A stretch of DNA of 62,753 nt, the filler included, from Candidatus Woesearchaeota archaeon (GTDB lineage: Archaea > Nanobdellota > Nanobdellia > Woesearchaeales > BM511): the NCBI GenBank assembly GCA_023266675.1. It is 3 parts of 3 records of this genome, joined end to end, with 100 filler letters (N's around TTAATTAATTAA, not from the genome) between each part and the next. Parts side by side here need not be neighbours in the genome. Positions count along the whole stretch, not along the records: positions 1 to 28,227 come from JAHFPP010000009.1; 2 more parts are not named here. The stretch is one strand, 5' to 3'. Shown piece after piece: positions 12,855 to 43,354 of this stretch (position 1 is its first letter; the number at the start of each line of letters is the position of its first letter). A program made the translations under genes and the position numbers. The notes under the pieces were generated by a model. It did no database searches. It worked only from the letters and a program-made list of their open reading frames with translations, and was not told where the DNA came from.

Positions 12855-14486
12855 TTATTTCTCTTTGACTTCATTATCTGAATTATTTTCTTTATTCTCG
12901 ACAACAACTTTCTCTTTCTTTTCTTTTTTGGCTCTTTCCTTTGGCTTGTTTTGTTTTATCGCCCACTCTTTTTTCTTTGCGTACTGCGCAGGGTTTTTTA
13001 TTTTCTGACACAAGTTGTCGGAGTCCCTAAAGCATATTCCTAAATCTTTGTAGTACATGTTGTTGTCGCAGTTTGGCGGTGGCGCATTCTTTTTATGCTG
13101 TTTTTGGTAGCGCAAATGTCCAAGTATATATTGTTCTCTTATCGGGTCCTTGTTTTTCTTGTTCCACTCTATTATTCTTTTCTCAATCATTTCAGCGTCC
13201 CATCCTACTGACTGCAAAAAGTTTACAAGCGCGAACATGAATCTTTTTTTGCCGTCTTCCATGCCGCTAAGACCTTTTTTTATGCACGGAGGAAACAGTT
13301 CTTCAGGAATTGCTTTTTCTGGCACTTCAAACTCTTTTTTGTTTTCAAGACGTTTTGACTCTTCCTCATCCATTATATATACTGGGTTGTAATCATATGC
13401 TTTCAAAAACAAATCCCTAGCTTCATTAGGTATACACTGCGTTCTGTCAAGAAACCGGAATTTTGACACTTTAACATTCTCGGATTTAGCGTTTTCTTTT
13501 TCAAACAAATCAATTTTTTGAGGGTTAAAGGGAACCGATACAAGACCAGATTTTTCGTGCATTGAAAATTCCATTCTGTAAAGATGTCGTGATGATATGA
13601 GTATTGTGTCTACGTCAACTATTGACAGCGGATTGAATTTGTAATAGGCATTGTTTGAGCCACAGGAGCATAGTGTTTTTTTGTTTTCAATTTTTTGCAT
13701 GAGTGAATTGCATTTGCCGCATTTTCGCATTTCATCTTCAGTTTCCACGCTTTCCCTGTTTTCGCATCGAGTGCAGATGAAATCGGTTTTTTGCGCCTTT
13801 GCTTTTTCCTTGATTTCTTTCTTGCAATTAAGGCAGATTCTTTTTGTAAGTTCTGTTATGTCTTTTCCTGTCAACTCTTTTATTTTTTGGAGTGAAATCA
13901 CTGTTTTTCCGTCAATTATAATGTTTCCCTGAGTGTCGCAGTAGTTGTTTGCAATGTAGTCCACTATATATAGGGCGACTTTTCGCGCAGCGTCAGGGAA
14001 CAGCTTTTCAATTTCGAGTATTTCTCCTTTGATGTTTATTTTTTTAGGAAATGCTTCAAACGGTACTCCAATATGAAAACCCTTGTTTCCTGAGAATTTT
14101 ATCGATACTGATTTATTGACCCCATTATCATTTAGCGCCTTTACCATAAGCTTTGCTGTTGTTTTTGAGAGCTCCCAGTAAGGACAATCAATATCAAGAA
14201 CCAAGTCCCATCCGCGTCTTAGTTCTTCAAGTTCTCTTCGTGAAAGAGATGGCGAAAGCTGCATTGCATTTATCCATAGCTCTTCTGACGCGTGAAAGCT
14301 TGTTGCTCCCTTTTTTACAAATTCTAAAATGTCAGCTGGCGTACTTATCATATCTGGGCGTTTTCCATAGCCATTGTCGCTGTATCTTATGGCAATTTCT
14401 TTATCTAGTGCTCCGTCGCACATTGCTTGCCTTACATCTTCTCTTTTGTAGTGCAAAAGAAGTGAACTTATGCTTAATTCTCCCAT
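12855..14486 (-). CDS. priSL: Fused DNA primase PriS-PriL (DPANN type) with inserted multi-CxxC region
   Basis: PriS motifs WDLVLDID, FSGNKGFH, RHLYR...HEKS; PriL C-terminal domain FPPCI...PPNC...C...C; start placed at ATG 14486. Confidence 0.92.
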   Translation of the reverse strand: MGELSISSLLLHYKREDVRQAMCDGALDKEIAIRYSDNGYGKRPDMISTPADILEFVKKGATSFHASEELWINAMQLSPSLSRRELEELRRGWDLVLDIDCPYWELSKTTAKLMVKALNDNGVNKSVSIKFSGNKGFHIGVPFEAFPKKINIKGEILEIEKLFPDAARKVALYIVDYIANNYCDTQGNIIIDGKTVISLQKIKELTGKDITELTKRICLNCKKEIKEKAKAQKTDFICTRCENRESVETEDEMRKCGKCNSLMQKIENKKTLCSCGSNNAYYKFNPLSIVDVDTILISSRHLYRMEFSMHEKSGLVSVPFNPQKIDLFEKENAKSENVKVSKFRFLDRTQCIPNEARDLFLKAYDYNPVYIMDEEESKRLENKKEFEVPEKAIPEELFPPCIKKGLSGMEDGKKRFMFALVNFLQSVGWDAEMIEKRIIEWNKKNKDPIREQYILGHLRYQKQHKKNAPPPNCDNNMYYKDLGICFRDSDNLCQKIKNPAQYAKKKEWAIKQNKPKERAKKEKKEKVVVENKENNSDNEVKEK

Positions 14487-14560
14487 AAAAAAAGATTTAT
14501 TGCACATTATTTATATTGTTTGCTTAAAATCAAATAAGATTTATTATTTAACGATTTTAA

Positions 14561-15103: not shown

Positions 15104-15379
15104 ATGAGAAATAATAAAAAAGGCGCAGAATTGTCAATGAATGTCATAATAGTCGCAGCAATAGCTTTAATGGTTCTAGTTGTATTAAGCATAATCTTCA
15201 TGGGAAGAGCAGGAAAATTTGCAACAGAGTCAAATTTATGTTCAAACAATGGGGGAGCTTGTGTAAATACAGGAACTTGTACAGGGGCATATCAGAAAGT
15301 AACAACATCAGGTGTATGCTTGGATGCTGCTAAAAAATTGGATACTACAAAAGAATGTTGTATAACTGTAGCGACATAG
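15104..15379 (+). CDS. Type IV pilin-like protein (class III signal peptide, Cys-rich head)
   Basis: KKG|AELSMNVIIVAAIALMVLVVL; six-Cys C-terminus ending in CC; SD GAGGTG. Confidence 0.85.
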   Translation: MRNNKKGAELSMNVIIVAAIALMVLVVLSIIFMGRAGKFATESNLCSNNGGACVNTGTCTGAYQKVTTSGVCLDAAKKLDTTKECCITVAT

Positions 15380-15385
15380 GTTAAC

Positions 15386-15688
15386 ATGATTTTTAACTTT
15401 AAGCGCGGCTCGGAGATGACGTTAAACGTCATCATCGTTGCAGCTATCGCTTTAATTGTTCTAATTGTTTTAATATTCATATTCTCAGGAAAGATAAAAT
15501 TGTTTGGCCAGGGAACAGAAAGTTGCACTAATCAGGGTGGCCAATGCACGTCACCAAATGTTGCCTACACCGTAGGATGCATAGAGGCAGGCTCATGCAA
15601 ATGCCCAGACACAATACAAAACGCTGTAATGATAAGATCACAGGACTGCGAAAAACAGGCAAGAATTTGCTGCAAATCAGTGTTCTAA
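15386..15688 (+). CDS. Type IV pilin-like protein
   Basis: KRG|SEMTLNVIIVAAIALIVLIVL; eight-Cys head. Confidence 0.85.
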   Translation: MIFNFKRGSEMTLNVIIVAAIALIVLIVLIFIFSGKIKLFGQGTESCTNQGGQCTSPNVAYTVGCIEAGSCKCPDTIQNAVMIRSQDCEKQARICCKSVF

Positions 15689-15689
15689 A

Positions 15690-15992
15690 ATGAATCATAC
15701 AAAAAAAGCCCAGTCAATGTCAATGAATGTGATAATAGTTGCAGTGATAGCACTAATAGTACTAGTTGTTTTACTTTATATATTCGGTGACAAAATTAAT
15801 ATCTTCGGAAAAGGAGTGAGTAATTGTAACGGAAGGTGTTCAAACGGAATAATCTCTGATAGTAATTCTGGTTATGAAATATGTAATAATGAGTTTAGGG
15901 ATCAAGGGTATTCTTTTAATCCTGCAGGTGTATGCGGAACAAAAACACAACCACGTGCATGTTGCGTACAGCCACTTGGTCCGCAAACATAA
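15690..15992 (+). CDS. Type IV pilin-like protein
   Basis: KKA|QSMSMNVIIVAVIALIVLVVL; six-Cys head. Confidence 0.85.
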   Translation: MNHTKKAQSMSMNVIIVAVIALIVLVVLLYIFGDKINIFGKGVSNCNGRCSNGIISDSNSGYEICNNEFRDQGYSFNPAGVCGTKTQPRACCVQPLGPQT

Positions 15993-16032: not shown

Positions 16033-16191
16033 ATGTTTTTAGACGTTAAAAACTCAAACAAAAGGGGTAAGAAAGGTCAGTATGCTTTAACGCAAAACCT
16101 TGTAATTATAATCATTATACTTATTCTTGTTGGTATGGCATCATTCATAATCTATAAAGCAGTCAGCGGAAAACTGGCGGTGCATCCATGA
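16033..16191 (+). CDS. 52-aa mini-pilin (not in the ORF track)
   Basis: MFLDVKNSNKRGKKG|QYALTQNLVIIIIILILVGMASFIIYKAVSGKLAVHP*; ATGA overlap with the next gene. Confidence 0.8.
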   Translation: MFLDVKNSNKRGKKGQYALTQNLVIIIIILILVGMASFIIYKAVSGKLAVHP

Positions 16192-17306
16192 GAGGAAGAA
16201 AATCTCAGGTATCAAGCACGCTAGTAATAATGATAGCAGGAATGATAGGTTTACTGGTTCTAATAATAGTTACTGGTGGGTTTGCAAAGGTTTTCAAAAC
16301 AATCACGGGAAAAAGCGACTGCCAGATGCAGTTCTTGATATCAAGCTTCACAAAAACAGGCGGCGCACAGACAATTGAGCCTGAATGCGAACCACATTTG
16401 ATAACAGTTACACAGGACACTCTGGATAAAGGAGCGTCTAATGCAAAAAAAGTGTTAACTGAATACCAGAAAAATTTTGATTCTGGAAAATATAAGGGAA
16501 TAGATTCTGCACAACAATATTGGAATGGAAATTTTCAAGGTTATTCTGATCCAAACACTAAAAAATTAAATGAATGGGTAATGGATAAAACAGTTGCAGA
16601 TGAAATGAAATACTGCTGGGATGTAACAGGACGAGGAAATTTGGATTTGTTTAATGATTGGTGGACTTTACTTGATTGTAGAATAGATGGATGTACAAAT
16701 GTTGATGATTCAAAATGTTTTCAGAAATGTACAAAAGAACAAATATATGGAATGTATGGTTTAAATTCAGATGGACAAGCATTAACTGCACTAGGTGCTG
16801 CTGGAATAATTTGGGAATTAACGGGTATTAAAGGTAAAACAATGGTAGCAACAGTGACAGGTTTGCCACTTCTTTATAAAACCGCAACAGGTCAAATGCA
16901 AATTGCACAACCGCCAACTTTTTGTGTTCTTTGTTCAAGAATAAAATTTGATGAAACAGCTAAAACTTCAATAAAAAACCCTTCAGTAACATCGATGAGT
17001 TTATGGCTTGCAAATAATCCGGTAACTGATGTAGGGGACTATTCAAAAGTATCTTACGCTTCATATCTCCAAAATGATGCATATAAAGGTTTATGGGCAT
17101 CTAAAGATTCATATTCTTATGATACAAACCAAGCTTACGCAGTCTTGTATACTCGAATTAACGTTATGAAATCTAAACAATTACTTGGAGATATAGGAAC
17201 TCTTGTAGCAGGTACTAATCCAAACGATTTACCTCAAGCTGTTCAAATGATAAAATTGGTACCTTACCAAAATATTAAAAATGAATGTACTTATTTGGTT
17301 GGTTGA
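16188..17306 (+). CDS. Class III signal-peptide protein (minor pilin/adhesin-like, Cys-rich)
   Basis: RKS|QVSSTLVIMIAGMIGLLVLIIV; ADEMKYCW, CVLCSRI; internal hydrophobic segment. Confidence 0.8.
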   Translation: MRGRKSQVSSTLVIMIAGMIGLLVLIIVTGGFAKVFKTITGKSDCQMQFLISSFTKTGGAQTIEPECEPHLITVTQDTLDKGASNAKKVLTEYQKNFDSGKYKGIDSAQQYWNGNFQGYSDPNTKKLNEWVMDKTVADEMKYCWDVTGRGNLDLFNDWWTLLDCRIDGCTNVDDSKCFQKCTKEQIYGMYGLNSDGQALTALGAAGIIWELTGIKGKTMVATVTGLPLLYKTATGQMQIAQPPTFCVLCSRIKFDETAKTSIKNPSVTSMSLWLANNPVTDVGDYSKVSYASYLQNDAYKGLWASKDSYSYDTNQAYAVLYTRINVMKSKQLLGDIGTLVAGTNPNDLPQAVQMIKLVPYQNIKNECTYLVG

Positions 17307-17310
17307 TAAA

Positions 17311-17463
17311 ATGAGGAAAAATAAAAACGCAGAGATTGGTTGGAGTTTTGTAGTAAAATTAATTCTTGGATTAATGATATTATTGGCTTTGATATTTGTA
17401 GCAGTGAATGCAAAATCAGGATTTTCAAACATGTTTAGTAAATTAGGAAGCTTATTTGGGTAA
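17311..17463 (+). CDS. 50-aa mini-pilin
   Basis: MRKNKNA|EIGWSFVVKLILGLMILLALIFVAV; start moved to ATG 17311. Confidence 0.75.
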   Translation: MRKNKNAEIGWSFVVKLILGLMILLALIFVAVNAKSGFSNMFSKLGSLFG

Positions 17464-17466
17464 GAA

Positions 17467-20466
17467 ATGAAATTAAATAAAAGAGGGTTTTCAGTACTTG
17501 TAGCGATGATACTCGGATTAATTTTAATCCTAATTATGATACCTGTTGTGAAATATGTTAAAGATTCTAGCGACTCAAAATTCTTTCAGGACCAAGGGAT
17601 AAATCCTAAAGATGATTTTATACCATTTAATTATAATTCTAAAATACTTGGAGACGATAAAATTGCATTAGCATCTTTTGATCTTTTAACTGAAGCAATA
17701 AATTCTGTAGCACAAGGAAAAACAGTTGATGCCTCAACAAGTGCAGATTCCGGCGTTTATGTTAGTTTCACAGGAGAATTTGAAGCAGGAGTTAAAGGCG
17801 GGCAAAAACAAAAAGAATTTTGTTCATTCTATCTGACAAAAACAGGTTCACAATCATATAATTGTAAAGATTATTTTGACAATAAACAAAATAATGTAAA
17901 TGATAATCTCAGAGATAAAATACCTTATGATATTAATGGATTGTATACTTTTAATGTTGCTACGGAGAAAGGAGAATGCAAATTTCCTGATGGATATGAG
18001 TATGAGGTATCAGACTTAAAAACTAGAGGAGATATGGATAGTTGCTCAGATGCACCTAATTTTGTAATATGCAACGGCTACAAAGTTTCATATTGTGGAA
18101 AAGCGGCATGGAACATAAAAGTTTATGTTGAAAAAACAAGTGCTGAAAATAATTTTTCAGTAAAAACCTGGGACAGTTCTTTGACAAAAACAGCAAATTT
18201 CATTAAAAAAGGATTAAGCAAAATAGCTATTAATCCTATAAAACCATCAACCGCTTTTTGTGATGGCGGGAAAATTGTTGACTTGGGAAACAATAAATCG
18301 ATGTGTTTAAATTGTGACCCTACAAGAAAAAAATGTGATTTAATCGGATTTGAACTTCCTCAAAAGATAAATCAAACCGGCATTGAAAAATGGCTTCAAG
18401 GATATGGAGACCCAAAATATATTGTATATTATGAAATGTTTCCACAAGGCGAAGAGGATGCTTGGCAGATAAGTAAAGCAACAACTGCGTCAATAGTATT
18501 GACAACGGCATCAGTAACATTAGATATGTTACCTGCTGTCGGAAAATTAATTTCAACATCAACGAAAATGTCAAAATTTTTTGAACCGGTAAATACGTGG
18601 TGGACTAATATTAAAGCAAAAACAGTTGGGAAAGCGAAAGATGCAGTTGTTAATGGAATTAGAACTATTTTAGATAATCCTTCTACTGAAGAAATATTAA
18701 GCAGGGCTATGAAAATTGCAATATCTGATGGGTCTGCAGATGCTATGATATCAGTTAATAAAGGACTAGTCAGTCAAGAAGTCCGTAATTCTCTTAATAG
18801 CGTAAATAGAAATTTAGGTTCTAAATTAACTAAAAATTTTTATGATGATATTTCAAGTGTAAGCAGTAAATATGTTGATAGTACAGGCGAAATTATGGGA
18901 GATTATGCTTTAAAATTTCCTAAAGAGGCATCAGATTTGCTTAGACAAAAATTAAAACAAGATCAAAATTTAATAAAATATTTAGAAAAACAATATGTTA
19001 ACAGTCCAAACAAACAACAATTAATTGATGAAACAATTGAAAAAACTGCAATTAATTTTGAAAAAAACTTTGCAAATGAAGCAAAATTAATTACTAAAGA
19101 GAATTTGGATATTATAAGATTTCAAAAAGGATTGACTTCTCAGGATAGATATTTTGTTGAAACTTTTAAAAATATGTTTCAAGCCCAAAAATCAGGAGGA
19201 AGTATCTTCTATAAACTTGATGAGAAAGCTTTTGATGATATAGCTGTAAAACTTGAAAAAACTTTAAGTTCACCCGATTTTTCTCGTGAGGCTAAACAAG
19301 CCTTATACGAAAGAGCACAAAAAATGGAAGCAAAAATGCTTATAGAAAAAGGAGATGATTTAGCCATAAATAAATTTGCATTTATACTTGATGATGTTGG
19401 AGCAGATATTACTTCTATAGCTCCACAAATAGATGCAGTAGCTGCAAAATATACTACAAAAACAATTTATGGTCAAGTAGTAGATGGAGCATCAGCAACT
19501 GGAACAACCGTGTGGAATAATAAAGGAAGGATGTTTTTTGCCACAGTAATTGCAATGTATGCTGCGCAGATGGACAAAATAAATGAGAAATATACACCTT
19601 CTGGTGTCAATAAACTTTCATTATCCACAGTCTCATTAGCAGAACAAAAAAGATCAAACTCTTTAGATGCGGCTAATGATTATTTTATAAGAATTGATAA
19701 AGGAAGAGGAAGCACTAATACAGACAGGTTCTTTTTAGCATCTCCATGTAAAACAGATTTGGACATTAGAATAGAAAAATGCAGTTGTGCAGTTGATGAT
19801 ACAATAACCAATATTAATGGGCAATGGACAGGATATCTCATTAAGACAAAAACAGGGTATATACCAGTAAAAAATGTAAATCCAAAAAATGGAGATTATT
19901 ACATTTTATCATTTGATAAAACAACTGCAAAAGATACACCCTCATATTCAGTATCAAGTGAGATAACAGGAGGTGTAACTCCTGATGTTTATGATACCTC
20001 AACTTTTGGAAGCAGAGATTATCCTGTGTTAGTCAATAATCCCTCATTAACGCAGTTTGCTGTTAAAGAATGCAACAGCAGGGGATGGTGGAGTAAAAAT
20101 GTATTCAATGGAGATAATGTTAATATTGATACTGGTTGTATAACTATTTCAGAATCATCTAATTCATTGGATGGAAAATACTATAATTACAATAATGAGT
20201 ATAATTTTTGCTATTCGTCAGCAGATTATCAAGAATGGAAAGATATAATATTAACCGCTCAAGTAGGTCTTGCAGTTGGCACAGTTGGTACAGGAGGTAC
20301 AGGAGCAATTATTGCAGGACCATTAAATGTTATGTTAACTTTTGGTGAAATTGCTCTTGATAAATCTTCAAAATGGCCAAATAATATAGACCACAAGAAT
20401 AATTATGTTGCTAAAGATAAATGGGATGATTCATTAAATGTCGCAGGACCTGTAGTCATGCCATAA
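17467..20466 (+). CDS. 999-aa class III signal-peptide protein (giant pilin-like surface protein)
   Basis: KRG|FSVLVAMILGLILILIMIPVV; two Cys-rich regions flanking a Cys-free charged core; Gly-rich hydrophobic segment near the C-terminus. Confidence 0.8.
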   Translation: MKLNKRGFSVLVAMILGLILILIMIPVVKYVKDSSDSKFFQDQGINPKDDFIPFNYNSKILGDDKIALASFDLLTEAINSVAQGKTVDASTSADSGVYVSFTGEFEAGVKGGQKQKEFCSFYLTKTGSQSYNCKDYFDNKQNNVNDNLRDKIPYDINGLYTFNVATEKGECKFPDGYEYEVSDLKTRGDMDSCSDAPNFVICNGYKVSYCGKAAWNIKVYVEKTSAENNFSVKTWDSSLTKTANFIKKGLSKIAINPIKPSTAFCDGGKIVDLGNNKSMCLNCDPTRKKCDLIGFELPQKINQTGIEKWLQGYGDPKYIVYYEMFPQGEEDAWQISKATTASIVLTTASVTLDMLPAVGKLISTSTKMSKFFEPVNTWWTNIKAKTVGKAKDAVVNGIRTILDNPSTEEILSRAMKIAISDGSADAMISVNKGLVSQEVRNSLNSVNRNLGSKLTKNFYDDISSVSSKYVDSTGEIMGDYALKFPKEASDLLRQKLKQDQNLIKYLEKQYVNSPNKQQLIDETIEKTAINFEKNFANEAKLITKENLDIIRFQKGLTSQDRYFVETFKNMFQAQKSGGSIFYKLDEKAFDDIAVKLEKTLSSPDFSREAKQALYERAQKMEAKMLIEKGDDLAINKFAFILDDVGADITSIAPQIDAVAAKYTTKTIYGQVVDGASATGTTVWNNKGRMFFATVIAMYAAQMDKINEKYTPSGVNKLSLSTVSLAEQKRSNSLDAANDYFIRIDKGRGSTNTDRFFLASPCKTDLDIRIEKCSCAVDDTITNINGQWTGYLIKTKTGYIPVKNVNPKNGDYYILSFDKTTAKDTPSYSVSSEITGGVTPDVYDTSTFGSRDYPVLVNNPSLTQFAVKECNSRGWWSKNVFNGDNVNIDTGCITISESSNSLDGKYYNYNNEYNFCYSSADYQEWKDIILTAQVGLAVGTVGTGGTGAIIAGPLNVMLTFGEIALDKSSKWPNNIDHKNNYVAKDKWDDSLNVAGPVVMP

Positions 20467-20482
20467 TAATCAGGGGTATAAA

Positions 20483-21301
20483 TTGGAAAAACAACTTTCA
20501 GAATATATTAAACAACAGTTAAAACAAAAACAAAAACCAAAAGAGATAGTATCCTCCCTAATGAAAAATGGATATGATGAAAAAGAAGCTAAACATAAAG
20601 TGCATTTTATAATAATTTTAAAATATCTTAAACTACTAGGAATCATACTCTTTTCAATTGTAATTCTTAGTTTTTTATTTATTTGGTTATATTTTACATT
20701 AACTGAAAAAACAATTCCTGTTAAAGAAATGTACCCTTCTAAACCAGAAAGCTGGATTGTAAAAACTGAAAATAATCAAAGTTTAGTTGATGTATCATCA
20801 ATAACTAAAGGTAACTCTTATTTTGAAGGTTTAAAACAAGTATACACAATTCCGTTTACAGATTTAACAACAATTTTTGAGGTTAATGGTTATTACAAAG
20901 GTACATATTTTTATGACTCTTATAATAAGGGAAACAAAGATTTAATGAGAATAACAAGCTCAATGAATCCAAGTGATGGGGTTATTGAAGGGTTCATTGT
21001 TGAAAGAATTAATGATTATAAAATAAATAATGTAACAGCTTTTATTTTTGTTGATTCTGATTGGAAAAATGCAATGCCAAATACGAAAATTTTCTATGGT
21101 TCAAAATATCAATATACTTCCGATTTTAAATTTAATGAGATAAGTCCCGGAATTTATATGACACAGATATATGACGATCCAAACAGACATTTTGAGAATT
21201 TCAGCATAAGTTATGGAGGAATAGCTGTTGGAGATTTGACAAAAGAGGATATATTAAATAATAATATCATCAATAAAACTTTTATAAGACTTTATTCATA
21301 A
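20483..21301 (+). CDS. Single-pass membrane protein of unknown function
   Basis: Short basic/helical N-terminus, one TM segment, C-terminal soluble domain. Confidence 0.7.
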   Translation: MEKQLSEYIKQQLKQKQKPKEIVSSLMKNGYDEKEAKHKVHFIIILKYLKLLGIILFSIVILSFLFIWLYFTLTEKTIPVKEMYPSKPESWIVKTENNQSLVDVSSITKGNSYFEGLKQVYTIPFTDLTTIFEVNGYYKGTYFYDSYNKGNKDLMRITSSMNPSDGVIEGFIVERINDYKINNVTAFIFVDSDWKNAMPNTKIFYGSKYQYTSDFKFNEISPGIYMTQIYDDPNRHFENFSISYGGIAVGDLTKEDILNNNIINKTFIRLYS

Positions 21302-21347
21302 AGTGCATCCAACAGCTTTAAATAGGAGAAGCGACACAAGATTTATT

Positions 21348-21719
21348 ATGAATAAGAAAGCAGATATGTCAATAAATACAATTGTTGCAGCAGCTCTTGC
21401 ATTGATACTTCTGATAATACTAATCTTTGTATTCAAAGGTCAGATAGGTAACCTTGCAAAAGGGTTTACTACAACAGGAGATGAAGCAAAACTTGGAGCT
21501 ACTCAAACGAAATGCAGGGCAATGTTTACTGATAGAGCTTGTGAATCTGATTTAAGTAAGTTTCCAGAATATACTAAAACAGGTTCTGCTTTACCAAAAC
21601 CTTGTAAAAAATATAAACCTGACCCAGTGACTAAAAAAGATAGTCAAGAATGTCTAGATGTAGGTTGGATTGATTGTGGAAATTCCGATTGTTATGAAAT
21701 AGTTAAAAAATCAACTTAA
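21348..21719 (+). CDS. Type IV pilin-like protein
   Basis: KKA|DMSINTIVAAALALILLIILIFVF; six-Cys head; start moved to ATG 21348. Confidence 0.85.
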   Translation: MNKKADMSINTIVAAALALILLIILIFVFKGQIGNLAKGFTTTGDEAKLGATQTKCRAMFTDRACESDLSKFPEYTKTGSALPKPCKKYKPDPVTKKDSQECLDVGWIDCGNSDCYEIVKKST

Positions 21720-21853: not shown

Positions 21854-23356
21854 ATGAGGATAAAAGGTTATCATTTATGGCTTTTAGCGATATTCCTAGT
21901 AGTCTTTGCTTCAAGGATGTATATTTCTTCACAGACTGATTTATTCTCTGACGATAATTCATATTTCACTTTAAGGCAGGTTGAACATATTGTTGATACT
22001 GGAAAGCCTTTGATATATGATGACTTGAGCTATGGAGGTAGAACACTTATTTTTTCGCCATTTTATTTTTATCTTCTTTCAGCGGCATATATAATCAATC
22101 ATAAGATTATAATGCTTAAAATATTTGTTAATTTGCTTGCAACACTTCTTGTTTTGGCAAGCTTTTTGATAGCTGACGAAGTCACCAAAAGCAAAAAGAT
22201 AGCGCTTGTAACAGCGTTTCTCTCAGGATTTATACCTGTGTATTTTCAGGAAACCGTAAACTCTCTATCCATTTATTCCTTAATTGTCCCATTGACATTC
22301 TTTTCAATATATTACCTAATGATGCTAAATAAGGATAAGAAATACAGCACGCATTTTCTTGTTTTATTGACGTTTCTTATAATCTCTTCGCCTACTTCAA
22401 TAATATTTGTTCTTGGAATACTTTTTTTTATAATTCTTGCAAAACTTGAAAAAATAGAACTTAACAAGGCAAACATTGAGATACTTATAGTTTCAATATT
22501 TTTCTATCTATGGCTTAATTTTATATTGTTCAAAAAAGCGATACTGTTTCATGGGCCGTCAATAATATGGCAGAATATTCCAAAAATATACCTGACTCAA
22601 TACTTTTCTGAAATTAACATATTGCAATCCGTATACCTGATAGGGGTGCTTCCTTTTGTTTTAGGTATATATTCTGCGTACATCTATGTCACACGCCAGA
22701 ATTCACTGCAAATTTACATAATAATCGGGGCATCATCATCATTGTTTCTTCTTTTATGGTTTAAACTGATACCTTTTAAGACTGGGCTTATATTTCTTGG
22801 AGCGTTTCTTGTGATACTGCTTTCACAGTACCTAAAACTGTTCTTTGATTATATTCTGCAGACAAAATTTTCAAAGTTTTCAGCATTCGCTTTTATACTA
22901 TTTATCATAATGATACTTTTATCATCAGTGTTGCCAAGTGTTGTTTTAGGATATCAAAAAATAAGTAATATACCCGAAAAAGAAACACTTGACGCATATT
23001 CATGGATTTCAAAAAACATAAACAGTACAAATACTGTTTTGGCGTTACAGGATGAAGGGCATGCACTCTCCTATTTTGGAAATGTAAAAACAGTAGCTGA
23101 CGACAATTTCATATTTGTAAAAAATATTGATCAGCATATCTATGACGTTGACAGAATATACCTTACAAGGTTTAGCGATGAATCACTTGAAATCATCCAC
23201 AAATATTATATTGATTATATTCTCATTGACAAAAAAGTAAAATTAAAATATAATTTAACTGATGTATTCTATTCAACTGATGAATGTTTTTCTCTGGTAT
23301 ATCATACCAAAGATGTAAAAATCTATAAAATATTATGCGAAGAGGAAGCAATATGA
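21854..23356 (+). CDS. GT-C fold multipass membrane protein (AglB/STT3-like glycosyltransferase)
   Basis: DDNSYFTLRQVEHI after TM1, many TM segments, C-terminal domain WI..N...VLALQDEGHALSYFGNVKTVADD...YYIDYILI. Confidence 0.65.
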   Translation: MRIKGYHLWLLAIFLVVFASRMYISSQTDLFSDDNSYFTLRQVEHIVDTGKPLIYDDLSYGGRTLIFSPFYFYLLSAAYIINHKIIMLKIFVNLLATLLVLASFLIADEVTKSKKIALVTAFLSGFIPVYFQETVNSLSIYSLIVPLTFFSIYYLMMLNKDKKYSTHFLVLLTFLIISSPTSIIFVLGILFFIILAKLEKIELNKANIEILIVSIFFYLWLNFILFKKAILFHGPSIIWQNIPKIYLTQYFSEINILQSVYLIGVLPFVLGIYSAYIYVTRQNSLQIYIIIGASSSLFLLLWFKLIPFKTGLIFLGAFLVILLSQYLKLFFDYILQTKFSKFSAFAFILFIIMILLSSVLPSVVLGYQKISNIPEKETLDAYSWISKNINSTNTVLALQDEGHALSYFGNVKTVADDNFIFVKNIDQHIYDVDRIYLTRFSDESLEIIHKYYIDYILIDKKVKLKYNLTDVFYSTDECFSLVYHTKDVKIYKILCEEEAI

Positions 23357-24795
23357 AAAAGATATTCGAACTTAATAAAAAAGCATCAATAGCAATTCTT
23401 CTCATGATATTTCTGGTTACATTTTCATTTCTTGGTGTTGCAAGATATCAAAAAAACAGTGCTTTAATTGGAGATGAATCATATTATCACCTAAGACTCT
23501 CTGAAAACATTGAAAAAAACGGATTTGAAAAAAATGGATTATCAGACAATGATTTATCATTGATTTTAGGACAGAAATATTATTTTAATCTAATTGATTT
23601 TGTTTTATCGCTTGTAAAACACAAGATTATATTCATGATAACAATTCCGCTTCTGCTTGGATTAGCCTCATTAATATTTTTTTATCTGGCACTTTCAAGG
23701 ATAGGTATAGAAAATAACCAGGTATTTTTTTCGTCAATACTCCTTATTTTGTCACCGCCTTTTATATACATATTTTCATCATATACTGTCTATCCTTTTC
23801 TTGTTTTTTTTAACATCCTTTTCCTGTTTTTATATTTAAACAACATGAAAAAGCTCTCTTTTCTGGCTATAATCCCAACATTATTTATAAGTCTCCCATC
23901 AGTATTTTTGACGTCTTTGATACTATTTTTTATCTATATATTCAATAAAAAGGACAAGCGTGAGATACTGATATCATCTTCATTATTAATATTAACCTCA
24001 TTAATAATATATTTCACCTTCTATTTTCCAAATTTTATTCCAAACAAGCTTTTTTTCTTTCACAGAAACATTTTTTCAAGAATAATATCTGACCTTGGAG
24101 CTAGCATAGGAATCAGCATATTTCATTTGGTTCTTGCATTTATCGGGCTTCTTGTAATAAAGACAAAAGAGAAAAGATTTCCAAATTACTTAATTCTTCT
24201 TTTCGCATTGATACTTTCAATATTTTTTAATCTTATAATGATATTTTTCAACTTCTTTGTGTGTTTTCTCGCATCATATTCATTATCGGAGATTTATCAT
24301 AAAAAATGGGAGATAGATGTACTAAAAAATATTACATTAATACTCATAATTTACGGTCTTTTATTTTCAAGTTTTTCTTTTCAGACAAGGTTAATCAGTT
24401 CAAGTCCTACAATTGAGGAAATAAACGCGCTAGCATTCTTAAAGGATAACCCATCTGGAGTTGTTTTTTCGCACTTCTCAAACGGCTATCAGATAGAGTA
24501 TTTTTCAGAGAAAAGCGCAATGATAGACCAAAGAATCTACACATTAAATAACGGCAAAGAATTATTGAATGATTCAAACACGATATTCTTTTCAAGAAAC
24601 ATTCAAACTACAAAGAAGCTGCTTGAGAAAAACAATATCTCTTATATTTTTATAAACAAGGAAATGAAAGACGGGCTTATATGGGACAAGCGAAATCAGG
24701 GGCTTCTTTTCCTTCTTGACAAATCTACAGATTTTAAAAATATATATGACAAAGATGAAGTGGAAATATGGCAAGTTTTATCATCAAAAAATTGA
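23353..24795 (+). CDS. GT-C fold multipass membrane protein (AglB/STT3-like), paralogue of the upstream gene
   Basis: GDESYYHLRLSENI; VFSHFSNGYQIEYFSEKSAMID...NISYIFI; ATGA overlap gives start 23353. Confidence 0.65.
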   Translation: MKKIFELNKKASIAILLMIFLVTFSFLGVARYQKNSALIGDESYYHLRLSENIEKNGFEKNGLSDNDLSLILGQKYYFNLIDFVLSLVKHKIIFMITIPLLLGLASLIFFYLALSRIGIENNQVFFSSILLILSPPFIYIFSSYTVYPFLVFFNILFLFLYLNNMKKLSFLAIIPTLFISLPSVFLTSLILFFIYIFNKKDKREILISSSLLILTSLIIYFTFYFPNFIPNKLFFFHRNIFSRIISDLGASIGISIFHLVLAFIGLLVIKTKEKRFPNYLILLFALILSIFFNLIMIFFNFFVCFLASYSLSEIYHKKWEIDVLKNITLILIIYGLLFSSFSFQTRLISSSPTIEEINALAFLKDNPSGVVFSHFSNGYQIEYFSEKSAMIDQRIYTLNNGKELLNDSNTIFFSRNIQTTKKLLEKNNISYIFINKEMKDGLIWDKRNQGLLFLLDKSTDFKNIYDKDEVEIWQVLSSKN

Positions 24796-28227: not shown

Positions 28228-28327
28228 NNNNNNNNNNNNNNNNNNNNNNNNNNNNNNNNNNNNNNNNNNNNTTAATTAATTAANNNNNNNNNNNNNNNNN
28301 NNNNNNNNNNNNNNNNNNNNNNNNNNN
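28228..28327. other. Artificial contig linker
   Basis: 44 N + TTAATTAATTAA + 44 N; stops in all six frames. Confidence 0.95.
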
Positions 28328-34634: not shown

Positions 34635-35486
34635 TTAATTATTCTCTCTAAACATTGCTATCTCTTTTACTGCAGTAAGATAATGTTTTGAATTATTATA
34701 CCTCAATATCGCTTTATCATGATTATTACTAAATCCTCTTTTGCTTAGATAGTATGCTGAAGAAAATATTGCATCTCTCATATTAAATGGGTGTGATTTT
34801 GTAACGTCGCCAGCTTCCCCGACAAATTCTCTGTTAAGTGACCACGGCAAAAATTGACTAAAACCAGTTGCGCCTGCATACGAGCCTTTAAGCGAGAATA
34901 TTGGAATCTTTGTTCTTTTAGAGTAATCTATCAATTCAGCTAAATGGTCCAAGGCAAACTTTCTTTTTTTCTCAACAAAGACATAAGTAGATGCGAGCGC
35001 ATTCACTGTTTTATATCTCCCTAAATTATTTCCAAATTTTGTTTCTATACCAATAATACCAGTTATATACTCTTTGTTAACCTTATGTCTTTTTTCTGCC
35101 ATCTCAAGCGCTTCCTTATGCTCTTCCATGAATCTTTGTTTTAATTCAAAAATTTCATTAATGCCAAGAACACGCTTATAATCATCATAATTTCTAATCA
35201 CAAATTTTTCTTTGCCGTCTGCTTTGCATCCATTCCAATTATACATCACACCTTTCTCTATCTTAAACTCTGCGTCATTAAATATTGAATCAATTGTTTT
35301 GCTGTCAAACTTTCTGGATAATTCTCTTCTTAATTCAGAAACTTTCTTCTCTTCCTTAACTTCAATCTTCTCAGTTATGCATCCTTTATTATTTGTCACT
35401 GCATTTGTTCTTTGCTCTGCATAAACATCACTAATTGGAGAGAGAAGCATTGCTATAACAGCAGATGTTGTTATTGTTCTTTTCAT
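34635..35486 (-). CDS. mltB: Secreted lytic murein transglycosylase B-like protein (SLT_2/GH103)
   Basis: Signal peptide; GIIGIETKFG (catalytic Glu), GSYAGA.G.SQFLP, DAI.S.AYYL, AILRYN.S..Y..AV. Confidence 0.9.
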   Translation of the reverse strand: MKRTITTSAVIAMLLSPISDVYAEQRTNAVTNNKGCITEKIEVKEEKKVSELRRELSRKFDSKTIDSIFNDAEFKIEKGVMYNWNGCKADGKEKFVIRNYDDYKRVLGINEIFELKQRFMEEHKEALEMAEKRHKVNKEYITGIIGIETKFGNNLGRYKTVNALASTYVFVEKKRKFALDHLAELIDYSKRTKIPIFSLKGSYAGATGFSQFLPWSLNREFVGEAGDVTKSHPFNMRDAIFSSAYYLSKRGFSNNHDKAILRYNNSKHYLTAVKEIAMFRENN

Positions 35487-38987: not shown

Positions 38988-41624
38988 ATGAAACAAAAAA
39001 CAAATTTTAAAAAATTATTATCAAATCTATCTATCTATCTAATCTTAATGGTGTCAATTATGTTTAGCGCACACGCATACACATCACCTGCAACTATTAA
39101 TCTTCTGACAGCAGCGGATTATGTCATATTAACAAAAACAGGAGTCACAAATGTACACACCTCCGCAATCACAGGAGATGTTGGTTCAAGCCCAATCACT
39201 GCTGCTTCAATGGACAACGTGTTTTGCTCGGAAATAACCGGAACAATATATGGCGCTAACGCAGCATATACGGGAAGCGGAGACGTAACCTGTTTTGCAG
39301 GAACACCATCCGATAATACTTTGGTGGCTAACGCAGTTCTTGATATGGGAACTGCATACGGTGATGCAACATCACGAGCACCTGACGCAACTGAACTAGG
39401 CGCAGGAGACCTTAGTGGATTAACACTCGCTCCGGGAGTATATAAGTGGAGTACAGATGTTGTTATAAATACTGACGTCACGCTTAACGGAAGCAATACA
39501 AGCGTATGGATCTTTCAAATATCAGGAGATTTAACTGTTGCTGCTGGTGCAAACGTACCTGCAGGAATAAAAGTACTGCTTATAGGAGGAGCGCTTCCAC
39601 AAAACATTTTCTGGCAGGTTGGCGCATCAAACTTTGGAGCAACACTTGGAACCTACTCAACATTTAATGGAAACATTTTAAGCGCAAAGCAGGTCAGGAT
39701 AAACACTGGCGCAATATTAAATGGACGAGCGCTTGCAGACACCCAAGTTACATTACAGTCTAATACCATAACAATACCTACAACTGGCGGCGGTGGTGGC
39801 GGCGGTTCAACAAACTCAACAATAACATTAGCAACACCAGGAAATAATACTTTTAAAAATAATATTACACCAACATTCATATTCAAATATATTGGTAACA
39901 CAACAGCCTCGTGCACTTTGTTTGTTGATAGTGTAGGTAAAGGAATAAATGCATCAACGGTTAATAATACAAATACAGCAATCGTTGCAAACAGTTCATT
40001 AACTCAAGGAAATCACAATTGGAATGTAAACTGCACAGATTCTTCCGGAAACGTTGGTTCATCAATAAGATTAGTCAAAATTGACACAACATCTCCGGTA
40101 GTGAATTTAATAAGTCCAACCAATAACACTTTTAGCGCATCTATATTTACTTTTAATTACACTGATGCCTTAAGTTCAACATCATCATGCACATTATATG
40201 TTGGCGGAGTATCTAAAGGAACAAATGGTTCAGTTGCCAACAACACAAACACAGCCATCACTGCAAACTCTTCATTAACTCAAGGAAGCAACAGTTGGTA
40301 CGTAAACTGCACTGACCTTGCAGGCAATATCGGAAATTCAAGCAGCAGAATCGTTTTAACAGATTCAATTTATCCAACATCATTAATCAACAATGTTAAT
40401 GGTGTGCTTAATGGAATTGGCACAACTAATGAAACTTTGACAATAAATTTCACTGCAAATGACACAAACATGGTAAATTGGACGTTATCAGTCTATAATT
40501 CAACATGGGGTTTATTGCAGAATTGGTCAGCAAATACAAATAATCTTTCTGCATTCAACGTATATACAGCAACTTCAAACGGCACATATTACATAAACTT
40601 GACTGTCAGAGATAATGCTACCAACATAAACACCACTTCATTTACTGTGTATGTCGATCAGTCAGTGCCAATCATAACGACATTTACACTTTCAGATTCA
40701 AGTGTTTATATTGGACAGACAATAACATGGTCATGCTTGGCAACGGATAGTTATACTGTTGTGACAACTGATGTAACTGGGCTAGATACCTCATCGGCAG
40801 GAACAAGAACAGCAACATGCATAGCAACAGACGGCGCCGGAAACACAGCATCTGCAACAGCATCATATACTGTCTCTCATAGGGCAACAGGCGGCGGAAG
40901 CGGAAGCGGCGGAAGCAGCAGTGCAACATCTGACAATTCGCAGTCATCAAGCCTTTCAACAATGATAGAAGGAAAAACAAATGTAGAATTCAATAAAGCA
41001 ACATTGCCAGTAACAGGAGTTGATATTGAAACAAGTGAAAAAGCATCAAACGTGAAAATAACAGAAACAATGCTTAGTACAAAACCATCTGATACTCCTG
41101 CTCCACAGGCTGAATACATCTACTATTATATTCAGATTGACCACACAAACCTTAACAACTCAATAATAAGCTCTGTAAAAATTAGGTTTAAAGTAGCTAA
41201 ATCCTGGATTGAAAGCAATAGTATTCAGTTAAGCCAGATAAGGCTTTATAGATACAACCAAGGATGGGAAACACTTAACACAACAATGTTATCAAATGAC
41301 TTAACCTATTATTATTTTGAGGCAACAAGTCCCGGGTTATCACTTTTTGCAATAGGATCTGAGAACGCAGCTGTAACGCCACCTGTAGTAACTCCGGCTG
41401 TAACACCTCCTGTAGTAACTCCGGCTGTAACACCTCCTGTAGTAACTCCGGCTGTAACACCTCCTGTAGTAGTACCGCAAGTCACAGGCAACGCAGCAAG
41501 TGAAAGCTGGTTTAAAACTTCATGTGGACTGGTTTTGGCATTGTTTGTTATCATCGGACTTTTGATTGGAGGATACTTTATGTTTAGAGAGCCAAAAAAC
41601 AAGAATCGGAGACATAGAGATTAA
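38988..41624 (+). CDS. Cell-surface ice-binding protein: DUF3494 + Ig-like repeats + PGF-pre-PGF domain + C-terminal TM anchor
   Basis: ILTKTGVT, ITGDVG.SP, TLAPGVYKW, WIFQI, NIFWQVG, GRALA.TQVTL; EATSPGLSLFAIG; many N-x-S/T sequons. Confidence 0.9.
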   Translation: MKQKTNFKKLLSNLSIYLILMVSIMFSAHAYTSPATINLLTAADYVILTKTGVTNVHTSAITGDVGSSPITAASMDNVFCSEITGTIYGANAAYTGSGDVTCFAGTPSDNTLVANAVLDMGTAYGDATSRAPDATELGAGDLSGLTLAPGVYKWSTDVVINTDVTLNGSNTSVWIFQISGDLTVAAGANVPAGIKVLLIGGALPQNIFWQVGASNFGATLGTYSTFNGNILSAKQVRINTGAILNGRALADTQVTLQSNTITIPTTGGGGGGGSTNSTITLATPGNNTFKNNITPTFIFKYIGNTTASCTLFVDSVGKGINASTVNNTNTAIVANSSLTQGNHNWNVNCTDSSGNVGSSIRLVKIDTTSPVVNLISPTNNTFSASIFTFNYTDALSSTSSCTLYVGGVSKGTNGSVANNTNTAITANSSLTQGSNSWYVNCTDLAGNIGNSSSRIVLTDSIYPTSLINNVNGVLNGIGTTNETLTINFTANDTNMVNWTLSVYNSTWGLLQNWSANTNNLSAFNVYTATSNGTYYINLTVRDNATNINTTSFTVYVDQSVPIITTFTLSDSSVYIGQTITWSCLATDSYTVVTTDVTGLDTSSAGTRTATCIATDGAGNTASATASYTVSHRATGGGSGSGGSSSATSDNSQSSSLSTMIEGKTNVEFNKATLPVTGVDIETSEKASNVKITETMLSTKPSDTPAPQAEYIYYYIQIDHTNLNNSIISSVKIRFKVAKSWIESNSIQLSQIRLYRYNQGWETLNTTMLSNDLTYYYFEATSPGLSLFAIGSENAAVTPPVVTPAVTPPVVTPAVTPPVVTPAVTPPVVVPQVTGNAASESWFKTSCGLVLALFVIIGLLIGGYFMFREPKNKNRRHRD
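41370..41477 (+). repeat. 4 x 27-bp coding tandem repeat (AVTPPVVTP linker)
   Basis: GCTGTAACACCTCCTGTAGTAACTCCG repeated four times with minor variation. Confidence 0.95.
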
Positions 41625-41776: not shown

Positions 41777-43354
41777 ATGAAAGGAAAAAAATTATTAAAT
41801 ATTGTTTTATACACGCTTGTAATTGTGTCATTATTATCTGTAAGCATATTCAGCGCTTACGCAGCGCAGTCAGCAGTTAATCTAGGAACTGCAGGAAATT
41901 TTGTTATCCTATCAAAAACAGGAGTATCAACAACAGGCACAACAGCTATAACAGGAGATATTGGTGTAAGTCCGATTGACGGCACTGCAATCACAGGCTT
42001 TGGACTGATAATGGATGCAACAAACGAATTCTCAACATCATCACTTGTAACTGGAAAGCTTTACGCAGCAGATTACACGCCACCAACTCCGGCTAAAATG
42101 ACGACAGCTGTGAGCGACATGGAAACAGCATACACTGATGCAGCTGGGCGAACAGAAACAAGCATAGTCACAGAGCTAGGCGCAGGCGACATCAGCGGCA
42201 TGACAATTGCACCAGGCCTTTACAAATGGGGTACAGGAGTTCTAATTTCAACAGATATAACACTTGAAGGAGATTCAAACGCAATATGGATTTTCCAGAT
42301 ATCAGGCGACCTTACTGTGGCGTCAGGGGCGAAAATAATCTTAAAAGGCGGAGCGCAGGCTAAGAACATATTCTGGCAGGTAGGCGGAGGAGTTGGCGTA
42401 GAAATAGGAACAACAGCGCACATAGAAGGAAACATCATAGCTCAAAAAGCAATTCACCTTCGAACTGGTGCCACATTAAACGGACGCGCACTTTCCCAAA
42501 CAGCAGTAACATTGGATGCTAATGAAATATCATTATCCGCATCATCAACAGCTACTGAAACATCAACATCTGGCACAACAGGAACATCATCAAATAATAA
42601 TCAAGCCAACACAAATTCAAATAGCGGCACAAGCAGTGGCACTAGCAGTGTGTGCAGAGCAGCTTTTGAGTGTAATGACTGGTCAACATGTAATGCTGAA
42701 AAAAAGCAGACAAGAATATGTGTAGACAAAAATAACTGCGGAAGTAAAGATAATACTGAAACAAGAACTTGCACATATATTCTCAAATCAGAAAATAATT
42801 CAGATAAAGAATATTTGACCGATGAAAAAAATAAATCAAGTGAAGGAATCGGCCAGGAGCTCAATAATCAGATTAGCGAGCGAAAAGAAGAAATCAAGTC
42901 AGGCGAGTATACATCACCTATGGGTCAAATGATGGGAGTTAGAGAATTATCCAAAAACCTAAAAGAGTTAAGGGTCAATAATATCAATGCTCAAACTAGT
43001 TTAAGCATAATCGCCGAAACTGATAAAGACGGAAAAACAAGATTCAAAACAAAATTGACAAACGGCACAGAAATAGAAATAAAAATTATGCCTAACATGG
43101 CTTCACAAAAAGCGCTTGAGCAGCTAATGGTCAAAGTGTGTTCGTCTGACAATAACTGCACAATCCAGCTAAAAAAAGTTGGAAATGGAGCCTCTGAAAA
43201 GATTCAATACGAAATACAATTGGAAAGGCATTCAAAACTTTTAGGGATGTTCTCCAAAAAGATGCATGTCAGCGCAAATGTCGATGCACAAACAGGCGCA
43301 GCAACAATGCATAAACCATGGTGGTCATTCATGGCATCTGAAAAATTAGAATAA
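41777..43354 (+). CDS. Secreted ice-binding protein: DUF3494 + Ser/Thr linker + Cys-rich module + C-terminal domain
   Basis: AVNLGTAGNFVILSKTG, TGDIGVSP, YAADY..PTP..MTTAVSDM.TAY.DAAGR, PGLYKW, NIFWQV, GRALSQTAVTLD. Confidence 0.93.
   Translation: MKGKKLLNIVLYTLVIVSLLSVSIFSAYAAQSAVNLGTAGNFVILSKTGVSTTGTTAITGDIGVSPIDGTAITGFGLIMDATNEFSTSSLVTGKLYAADYTPPTPAKMTTAVSDMETAYTDAAGRTETSIVTELGAGDISGMTIAPGLYKWGTGVLISTDITLEGDSNAIWIFQISGDLTVASGAKIILKGGAQAKNIFWQVGGGVGVEIGTTAHIEGNIIAQKAIHLRTGATLNGRALSQTAVTLDANEISLSASSTATETSTSGTTGTSSNNNQANTNSNSGTSSGTSSVCRAAFECNDWSTCNAEKKQTRICVDKNNCGSKDNTETRTCTYILKSENNSDKEYLTDEKNKSSEGIGQELNNQISERKEEIKSGEYTSPMGQMMGVRELSKNLKELRVNNINAQTSLSIIAETDKDGKTRFKTKLTNGTEIEIKIMPNMASQKALEQLMVKVCSSDNNCTIQLKKVGNGASEKIQYEIQLERHSKLLGMFSKKMHVSANVDAQTGAATMHKPWWSFMASEKLE

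Follow-up and report, generated by a model that had tools for sequence, protein, structure and literature searches.

Why would an archaeal cell keep some 380 consecutive residues of a giant prepilin-like protein free of both N-glycosylation sequons and cysteines? This question is raised by p999, a protein of 999 amino acids (aa) encoded in a gene cluster of a Candidatus Woesearchaeota archaeon (NCBI GenBank assembly GCA_023266675.1). The cluster lies on contig C34, the first contig of the window, by which is meant the whole 62,753-nucleotide (nt) stretch of DNA that was analyzed; the genome comprises 1.22 Mb in 83 contigs and is 95.9% complete. The initial annotation of this window described p999 and its 372-aa neighbor p372 as pilus-displayed proteins that insert into a host membrane, with the Cys-free core of p999 as a translocated cargo. 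The open reading frames (ORFs) and all of the motifs it drew upon (hydrophobic stretches, Cys pattern and Gly-rich segment) are in place, and both proteins are probably prepilin-like and extracytoplasmic. The answer favored here is tentative and is given somewhat less than an even chance: p999 may be a refolding, membrane-active contact module on a pilin-type anchor.

Sequons and cysteines are excluded from the insert that spans aa 334-712 of p999. This has been established in an alignment of 104 family sequences (A3), on which the family statistics given here are based (counts for the C-terminal region refer to n = 103). The core of these proteins contains no N-x-S/T sequon where 144 are expected, and the whole zone 334-712 contains a single one, in 1 of the 104 lineages, where about 158 are expected. 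In the core, control tripeptides occur about as often as chance predicts (observed/expected: Q-x-S/T 119/130, D-x-S/T 183/207, S/T-x-N 136/144). When any middle residue is allowed, the zone holds 13 N-x-S/T tripeptides, which after subtraction of the one non-proline sequon leaves 12 N-P-S/T, the form of the sequon that escapes glycosylation. An alignment-free check of 64 proteins likewise returned 0 sequons against 113 expected. Outside the zone, observed/expected counts are 84/220 in the first Cys-rich domain, 51/242 in the second and 3/31 in the C-terminal region.

The background in the same genome was established from two sets of ORFs. The 575 ORFs without a hydrophobic segment contain 1151 sequons against 1151 expected (ratio 1.00), and the 72 ORFs with an N-terminal anchor only contain 681 against 501 (ratio 1.36). 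An STT3/AglB gene is present in the genome (C2:12977-14287), and p999 ranks second in sequon depletion among 687 ORFs. Among the other proteins of the cluster, the p372 family shares the depletion (5 sequons against 38.7 expected), the small pilins are slightly so (10 against 14.1) and p272 is not (20 against 16.1).

Cysteines are unevenly distributed as well. In the family, Cys content is 3.10% in the first Cys-rich domain, 0.06% in the core (18 in 28,575 residues) and 2.25% in the second domain. The value for the core is 17-fold below the 1.03% of cytoplasmic-type ORFs in this genome, and 86 of the 104 cores are entirely Cys-free, compared with 122 of 933 cytoplasmic windows of 300 residues. 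In p999 itself, ten of the 16 cysteines fall at aa 119-290 and six at 761-915, leaving none in the 470-aa stretch from 291 to 760. Since cytoplasmic segments face no selection against sequons, the core would have to see the outer face of the membrane and remain unglycosylated there. The core thus appears to be extracytoplasmic and to be kept free of both glycans and disulfides. From these counts we infer strong selection against glycans and cysteines over aa 334-712, which would fit a segment that refolds, packs undecorated, or enters or crosses a bilayer.

Sequon use also varies among other large proteins of this genome. The most sequon-depleted ORF of all (G000:C2:18165-21008, + strand, 947 aa) holds 4 sequons against 21.9 expected and contains 5.1% Cys. 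Its N-terminus resembles a signal peptide, the STT3/AglB gene is about 4 kb away, and the protein may be another glycan-free surface protein. A prepilin-like pair on contig C50 (G000:C50:238-5946, - strand) consists of a 1215-aa protein with 24 Cys and 4 sequons against 11.7 expected, and a 353-aa protein with 0 against 3.7. A profile search found no homology between this pair and p999 or p372, and the pair suggests that sequon avoidance may be common among the large pilin-like proteins of this genome. Several large secreted proteins have about twice the expected number of sequons (e.g., G000:C41:11907-15500, 77 against 33; C44:3235-9762, 107 against 57), and much of the surface of the organism therefore appears to be heavily glycosylated.

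How is the insert embedded in the protein? The order of motifs and hydrophobic segments is conserved across the p999 family. Class III signal peptides follow a simple rule, in which a short basic N-terminus leads to [KR][GA] at positions -2/-1 and to about 20 apolar residues. Both p999 and p372 carry this class III or prepilin-type signature, with a short basic stretch, [KR][GAS] and then about 20 apolar residues. A [KR][GA] pair with an apolar run is found in 80 of the 104 p999 family members, and the N-terminal 26 residues of p999 match those of the p372 family in hhalign (probability 94%, expectation value (E) 1e-7). The first Cys-rich domain ends in the block C..FELPQ..GDPKY.VYYE.FP.GEE.AWQ, within which pairwise identity is 45%; P316 and W333 are invariant in the family. 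The first internal hydrophobic helix of p999, TTASIVLTTASVTLDMLPAVGK (aa 339-360, nt 18481-18546), has counterparts that contain 0 Cys and show a median Kyte-Doolittle 19-residue peak (KD19) of 1.56. The core that follows has a median length of 300 aa and a range of 103-453 in the alignment, and there are natural short homologs with cores of about 85-125 residues. It is closed by a second internal helix, which is short in the family (KD19 median 0.68) and in p999 includes FFATVIAMYAA (aa 690-700, nt 19534-19566).

The second Cys-rich domain opens with the block NEKYTP.GVN...RF.LASPCKTDL, over which pairwise identity is 31%, and its residues S759, P760 and C761 are invariant. The C-terminal region includes AQVGLAVGTVGTGGTGAIIAGPLNVMLTFG in p999 (aa 931-960, nt 20257-20346). 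Its median KD19 in the family is 1.76, with values of at least 1.6 in 73 of 103 members, and Gly and Ala make up 12% and 16% of aa 916-969 in the family as a whole. Conservation is at least 90% at W970 and P971, and the K-W-P motif stands a median of 6 residues from the end of the protein. In p999 the Kyte-Doolittle peaks are 3.26 at aa 10-28, 1.40 at aa 341-359 and 1.51 at aa 946-964; hydrophobicity is no more than moderate in the internal segments. Duplication of a pilin head as the origin of the two Cys-rich domains was considered and rejected (hhalign probability 0.2%).

The charges around these helices are also patterned. At the first internal helix, net charge is -1.9 before the helix and +2.5 toward the core, and K/R are more numerous toward the core in 94 of 104 members. 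For the second, the values are +1.9 (core side) and -0.5 (far side), and the positive-inside rule is followed in 58 of 104. The turn of the C-terminal hairpin is nearly free of charge and its outer flanks are acidic. Within the core, the sequence is of an amphipathic type, with L-x-K enriched (548/344) and K-x-K depleted (136/357). W333, W970 and P971 stand at helix ends. The run free of D, E, K and R in the second internal helix has a median of 14 residues and reaches at least 18 in only 10 of 104 members. A first helix with a run of at least 18 is combined with a second of less than 15 in 45 of 104, so that the parity needed by a reading in which both helices span a membrane is broken; the short family members P0147 and P0153 carry acidic residues at the position of the second helix.

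The genes are real and the family exists. A HMMER scan of 1.84 billion representatives (clusters at 50% identity) returned, with the query counted, 288 p999 family representatives at E<=1e-3, 108 at E<=1e-10 and 12 at E<=1e-30; a word-based search for relatives returned only 3. Two relatives have a named source, and both are listed as 'hypothetical protein' of Candidatus Woesearchaeota archaeon. Among 301 sampled genomes of the phylum, the family is found in 26, namely the genome studied here, 24 others from its order and 1 other from its class. In its own genome p999 is single-copy, as is p372, and a profile search of this genome found no paralogs of either. Neither the p999 nor the p372 family matched Pfam, NCBIfam or PDB, and no known fold was found for them; literature searches returned no description of the p999 family or of its sequon exclusion. 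p999 is the founder of an unnamed family that is widespread in one order.

Synteny is conserved in the 10 loci that were fetched from p999-bearing genomes. A p272 homolog adjoins the 3' end of the p999 homolog in 10/10 loci, co-directionally in 5 and convergently in 5. A p372 homolog lies upstream of the p999 homolog in 8/10, a p60 homolog lies between the two in 7/10 and small pilin-like genes are present in 10/10. The adjacency of p272 and p999 is kept while the orientation varies (loci L022-L031), and in some convergent loci the two stop codons stand back to back (6061/6062 in L030, checked by eye). An invertible switch around p272 was considered and rejected, as only short AT-rich inverted repeats were seen there and no flanking inverted repeats.

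The family data bear directly on the nature of the core. The initial annotation had pictured a translocated cargo, to be checked for swapping between homologs, and had named, as an observation that would speak against its model, a core as conserved as its flanks. Pairwise identity in the core is 14.6%, compared with 45% and 31% in the flanking blocks, and the core is the less conserved part. As for swapping, phmmer single linkage, a procedure that is lenient for K/E-rich helices, joins 86 of the 104 cores in one homology component. A toxin or pre-toxin (PT-TG) cassette finds no counterpart in the data: p999 gave only noise in Pfam at E<=1, and a Pfam scan of 35 family members, the longest included, found 0 with any domain at E<=1e-4. 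The single component and the lack of Pfam domains in these 35 members therefore describe the core as a fast-evolving single domain and not as a cassette of unrelated cargos. The variable immunity gene that might be expected next to a toxin was not seen either, as the downstream gene p272 is conserved in all 10 loci.

What does structure prediction add? The AlphaFold2 (AF2) model of p999 was built with 72 sequences and reached a predicted local distance difference test (pLDDT) score of 73 and a predicted template modeling (pTM) score of 0.67. In this model the Cys-rich domains are beta-rich and residues 368-707 are all-helical. Helices of span-like length (22-25 residues) are modeled at 337-361, 686-707, 919-941 and 946-968. 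Confidence is low over 354-434, with the first internal helix and the next 70 residues at pLDDT <50, and is higher over aa 440-620 (pLDDT about 70-89). In VIA alignments the C-terminal hairpin aligns jointly with core helices and with the 307-361 region, which suggests that these three elements may pack together. PDB profile matches to DP221, PP507 and DP622 (E about 4e-6) were set aside as compositional, since they are repeated high-bias matches to the K/E/L-rich core and the search found de novo designed helical proteins only; these names occur in a preprint on de novo designed metalloproteases (10.64898/2026.01.06.697903). The ESM Atlas gave no usable match.

These features can be assembled into a working model. 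After its N-terminal helix, p999 would lie wholly outside the cytoplasm. Two disulfide-rich, beta-rich domains would clamp the helical insert of about 380 residues (aa 334-712), whose edges would be hydrophobic helices with basic residues on the core side and aromatic residues at the boundaries, and a Gly/Ala-rich hairpin followed by K-W-P would close the protein. The insert would stay undecorated as its conformation changes and its hydrophobic helices enter a lipid bilayer, most likely that of a partner cell, or possibly the outer leaflet of the cell's own membrane. The mode of action would then be that of the helical domains with which alpha-pore-formers or fusion proteins insert, placed here on a pilin-type anchor, with p372, p60 and the small pilin-like proteins as co-assembled partners. 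We infer from sequence that the core lies outside the cell, that the module acts on a membrane, that it is displayed on a filament and that a host is involved; filament display is suggested because the N-terminal signature, the pilin-like neighbors and the machinery in the genome all point that way. A module free of glycans and disulfides, amphipathic, with basic collars, aromatic boundaries and a second hairpin, is why a membrane-active contact function is favored.

A more specific version of the model would make p999 a trans-cellular 'staple' or harpoon, although this is quite unlikely. The N-terminal helix would fix p999 to the archaeon, either to a filament or to the cell itself, and the insert would be driven through the partner membrane. 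The internal helices and perhaps the C-terminal hairpin would span that membrane, leaving the basic ends of the core on the cytoplasmic side of the partner. Such an arrangement would explain at once why the charges are positive-inside and why glycan sites and cysteines are excluded.

Could p999 instead be a static part of a surface structure? In this case p999 and p372 would be tip, minor-pilin-type or stalk adhesins whose helices are permanently buried and whose insert is glycan-free because its surface is packed. This is possible, if on the doubtful side. The cluster does resemble a set of minor pilins accompanied by large accessory proteins, sequon depletion extends over most of p999 and p372 and is not confined to the core, the model shows the core as a distinct bundle of helices (pLDDT about 70-89 over aa 440-620), the co-alignment of the hairpin with core helices hints at joint packing, and no pore-former fold has been found. 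A single sequon in a 380-residue zone with 14.6% identity and a core length that varies from 103 to 453 residues is, however, stricter than burial of one face would need, four near-uncharged helices of 15-25 residues with basic collars and aromatic boundaries resemble bilayer segments, and the model gives pLDDT <50 for the first internal helix and for the 70 residues that follow. The charge pattern can also be read with respect to the cell's own membrane. The N-terminal helix, the internal helices and the hairpin would then all be spans, with the Cys-rich domains outside and the core in the cytoplasm, where it would perhaps couple a surface complex to the assembly motor. Positive-inside charges at the internal helices (94/104 and 58/104), the partition of cysteines (3.10%, 0.06% and 2.25%), the span-like 22-25 residues of the model helices and the parity of a five-span topology are all consistent with this. 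It is improbable nonetheless: a cytoplasmic core should match background sequon use (1151/1151) and has 0/144, its Cys content is 17-fold below the cytoplasmic 1.03% (86/104 cores Cys-free against 122/933 windows), and the second internal helix is probably too short and polar to span: its uncharged run has a median of 14 and its KD19 a median of 0.68, parity is in conflict in 45/104, and short members have acidic residues there.

The full model of the initial annotation goes further than any of these. It has a pilus-displayed protein insert into a host membrane and deliver the Cys-free core to the cytoplasmic side of the host, with the internal helices spanning the host membrane. Alone among the rivals it covers both the charge pattern, taken relative to the target membrane, and the sequon and Cys exclusion, and the small genome of 1.22 Mb and the origin of both source-named family members in Candidatus Woesearchaeota speak for it as well. 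Delivery of a cargo is still very improbable, because no enzymatic or toxin domain was found in the 35 members scanned, the cores are homologous and unswapped (86/104 in one component), a functional cargo would not usually vary in length as the core does (about 85 to 453 residues), the second internal helix seems ill suited to span a membrane, neither a machinery for translocation nor a source of energy is apparent, and no fold match to the translocation domains of AB-toxins was obtained.

The membrane-active contact module has its own difficulties, and several results weigh against it. The 104 sequences are interrelated and the counts are not independent events, although the core is nonetheless the most diverged part of the protein. 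Tight burial in an assembly could be another cause of the sequon exclusion, and a composition classifier placed the core between the cytoplasmic and the secreted sets. The charge pattern obeys the positive-inside rule, so that an own-membrane topology fits too, and p999 could not be displayed at the tip of a pilus if its C-terminal hairpin were embedded in the membrane of the cell itself. The internal helices of p999 itself are weak (KD 1.40, with an Asp in mid-helix). The 'Gly-zipper' of the initial annotation amounts to a Gly/Ala-rich composition without a motif, since GxxxG is no commoner in the C-terminal regions than in shuffled sequences (57/103 against 55.5; [GAS]xxxGxxx[GAS] 61/103 against 51.5). 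Fold searches used the whole 999-aa model. The best hit of Foldseek against PDB had E 0.079, the best in BFVD had E 0.0034 with a template modeling (TM) score of 0.07, so that neither database yielded a hit at E<=1e-3, and an exhaustive VIA-align search returned generic helices only (Z<=8.2); none of these p999 searches gave a resemblance to a pore-former, a fusogen or a solved or viral structure. PT-TG, pore-forming and fusogen folds, to which the initial annotation had pointed, found no match by sequence or by fold. Cluster proteins scanned against Pfam and NCBIfam, pilin and archaellin models included, gave nothing above cut-off, and Flp1_like was matched only below threshold, by p138 and by 2 of 23 orthologous small pilins scanned.

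p372 shares the N-terminal signature and the sequon depletion, and it had been proposed to carry a hairpin of its own. The two hydrophobic segments are indeed present in this protein, ALTALGAAGIIW at aa 198-209 and MVATVTGLPLLY at aa 219-230. As a feature of the family the proposal did not hold: with 15 relatives found, the insertion occurs in 8 of 16 homologs and in 0 of the 4 locus orthologs in which the flanking motifs were located (in 4 more orthologs these motifs were not located). In the AF2 model, which has a pLDDT of 65, the insertion lies at pLDDT <50, and the model gave no significant match in fold searches. By sequence comparison, the p372 'hairpin' is a lineage-specific insertion and not a family-defining element.

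The genes of the cluster form a co-directional block that runs from three small Cys-rich pilin-like ORFs (15104-15992) through p372, p60, p999 and p272 to p138. Every protein of the cluster but p272 has a class III-type start, in which a short basic segment leads to [KR][GA], or to something close to it, and then to an apolar run of about 20 residues. The start of p60 overlaps the end of p372, and p60 ends 3 nt before p999; its translation probably starts at the internal MRKNKNA. Genes for a pilus motor lie outside the block, and matches above cut-off to Peptidase_A24 (1), T2SSE (4) and T2SSF (4) are found on other contigs of the same genome. The coordinates of the cluster and of the segments of p999 and p372 are given in Table 1.

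Table 1. Genes of the p999 cluster and segments of p999 and p372, with positions counted along the window.
Feature	Position (nt)	Strand	Basis and remarks
Small Cys-rich pilin-like gene, 91 aa, 6 Cys	15104..15379	+	N-terminus KKG|AELSMNVIIVAA; homologs in related loci
Small Cys-rich pilin-like gene, 100 aa, 8 Cys	15386..15688	+	ORF, Cys count; homologs in related loci
Small Cys-rich pilin-like gene, 100 aa, 6 Cys	15690..15992	+	ORF, Cys count; homologs in related loci
p372, prepilin-like, 372 aa, 10 Cys, sequon-poor	16188..17306	+	ORF, homologs, synteny
p372 aa 198-230, Gly/Ala-rich hydrophobic insertion	16779..16877	+	Motif location
p60, tiny single-helix protein	17281..17463	+	ORF, synteny
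p999, giant prepilin-like protein, 999 aa, family founder	17467..20466	+	ORF, family search, AF2 model
p999 aa 1-36, class III-type N-terminus MKLNKRG|FSVLVAMILGLILILIMIPVV	17467..17574	+	KD19 peak 3.26; family median KD 2.71
p999 aa 37-333, first Cys-rich domain, beta-rich in model	17575..18465	+	3.10% Cys in family
p999 aa 334-712, glycan-site- and Cys-free zone: hydrophobic helix 339-360, all-alpha core, short hydrophobic helix 686-707	18466..19602	+	Sequon and Cys counts, model
p999 aa 713-915, second Cys-rich domain	19603..20211	+	2.25% Cys in family
p999 aa 916-971, Gly/Ala-rich hydrophobic helical hairpin (919-941, 946-968), then K-W-P	20212..20379	+	Model and family statistics
p272, single-span protein, one hydrophobic helix, Cys-free ectodomain	20483..21301	+	Adjacency in loci
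p138, pilin-like gene closing the cluster, 138 aa, 6 Cys	21303..21719	+	ORF; sub-threshold Flp1_like match

Upstream of the cluster are a primase gene and a ribosomal-protein operon. The primase gene lies directly upstream on the opposite strand (12855-14507, -) and encodes a protein of 550 aa that is like the small subunit of DNA primase, contains zinc-ribbon motifs internally and ends in a Lys-rich tail. Directly downstream, two overlapping genes (21854-23356 and 23335-24795, +) encode very hydrophobic multi-span proteins of 500 and 486 aa that belong to no Pfam family. One of them has a weak match to chlor_Arch_YYY (E 7.5e-4, far under cut-off), and the two may be glycosyltransferase-like. 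The window is made of separate contigs, joined at 28228-28327 by two N runs with a ttaattaattaa linker between them; because the contigs there are separate, genes past 28227 are no neighbors of the cluster. Among these, an SLT_2 lytic transglycosylase with a Sec-type signal peptide is encoded at 34635-35486 (-; Pfam E 2.9e-38), on another contig than the cluster and in an archaeal genome; such a peptidoglycan-cutting enzyme could hint at a bacterial partner. Two adjacent large proteins with Ice_binding-like domains (E 4e-56 and 9e-77) are encoded at 38988-41624 and 41777-43354 (+), and one of them adds a bacterial Ig-like domain.

What would the p999 module mean for the biology of these archaea? 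The exclusion of sequons and cysteines is a signature, read from sequence alone, that would mark a 380-residue module as one to be kept undecorated outside the cell. The same sequon statistic could be applied to other uncharacterized archaeal surface proteins and may point to regions that refold, pack or cross membranes. To our knowledge, no contact protein is known for Woesearchaeota. If the harpoon-like arrangement were true, p999 would be a first molecular candidate for a protein with which a DPANN archaeon opens or bridges the membrane of its host, and if membrane insertion were shown, the module would be categorically new.

By its N-terminal signature and neighborhood, the cluster is probably a variant of the pilin sets of archaeal type IV filaments (T4F). 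According to a study of these systems, T4F are rarely detected in DPANN archaea by current models, and archaeal adhesins remotely like PilY are assigned to arCOG03511 and subsystem 4A (PMC13705601). With archaeal type IV pilins and minor pilins (e.g., the Epd pili of Methanococcus maripaludis and T4F 'system 1'), the cluster shares the class III-type N-terminus. Also shared are the row of small pilin-like genes and a genome with Peptidase_A24, assembly ATPases and platform proteins. The cluster differs in having neither a curated pilin match nor motor genes, and its 372- and 999-aa proteins are far larger, with extra hydrophobic helices and a C-terminal hydrophobic hairpin. Archaeal pilins are usually glycosylated, whereas the large proteins of this cluster avoid N-glycosylation sequons.

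Bacterial minor-pilin operons with a large tip protein are known from FimU-PilVWX-PilY1 and from GspH-K of type II secretion. The cluster is like them in combining a run of small pilin-like genes with large accessory proteins apart from the motor genes, for which a role in filament priming or tip adhesion is plausible, although no relation by sequence or fold was found. PilY1 is a non-pilin protein with a beta-propeller; the layout of p999, in which a pilin-type start is combined with two disulfide-rich domains and a helical insert, is different.

Helical membrane-insertion domains are known from the pore domain of colicins and the T domain of diphtheria toxin. With such alpha-pore-formers and AB-toxin translocation domains p999 shares hydrophobic hairpins, amphipathic basic helices and a lack of disulfides in the part that would refold, and the likeness is one of possible working only; p999 differs in having no fold or sequence match to them, hydrophobic helices distributed over 600 residues, no catalytic cargo and a pilin-type anchor. 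In class I viral fusion proteins, the fusion peptide combines a Gly/Ala-rich composition and moderate hydrophobicity with the ability to form a helical hairpin. Similar Gly/Ala-rich hairpins are seen at aa 916-969 of p999 and in the insertion of p372, although no structural match was found in BFVD or PDB and the p372 insertion is absent from half of the homologs. The anchor, finally, has a precedent in the archaellum. ArlF and ArlG (FlaF and FlaG) carry a pilin- or archaellin-like N-terminal helix and remain membrane-anchored and unpolymerized; they are small, single-domain proteins that bind the S-layer. They provide a precedent for an anchored, non-polymerized pilin-like start such as that of p999 would be.

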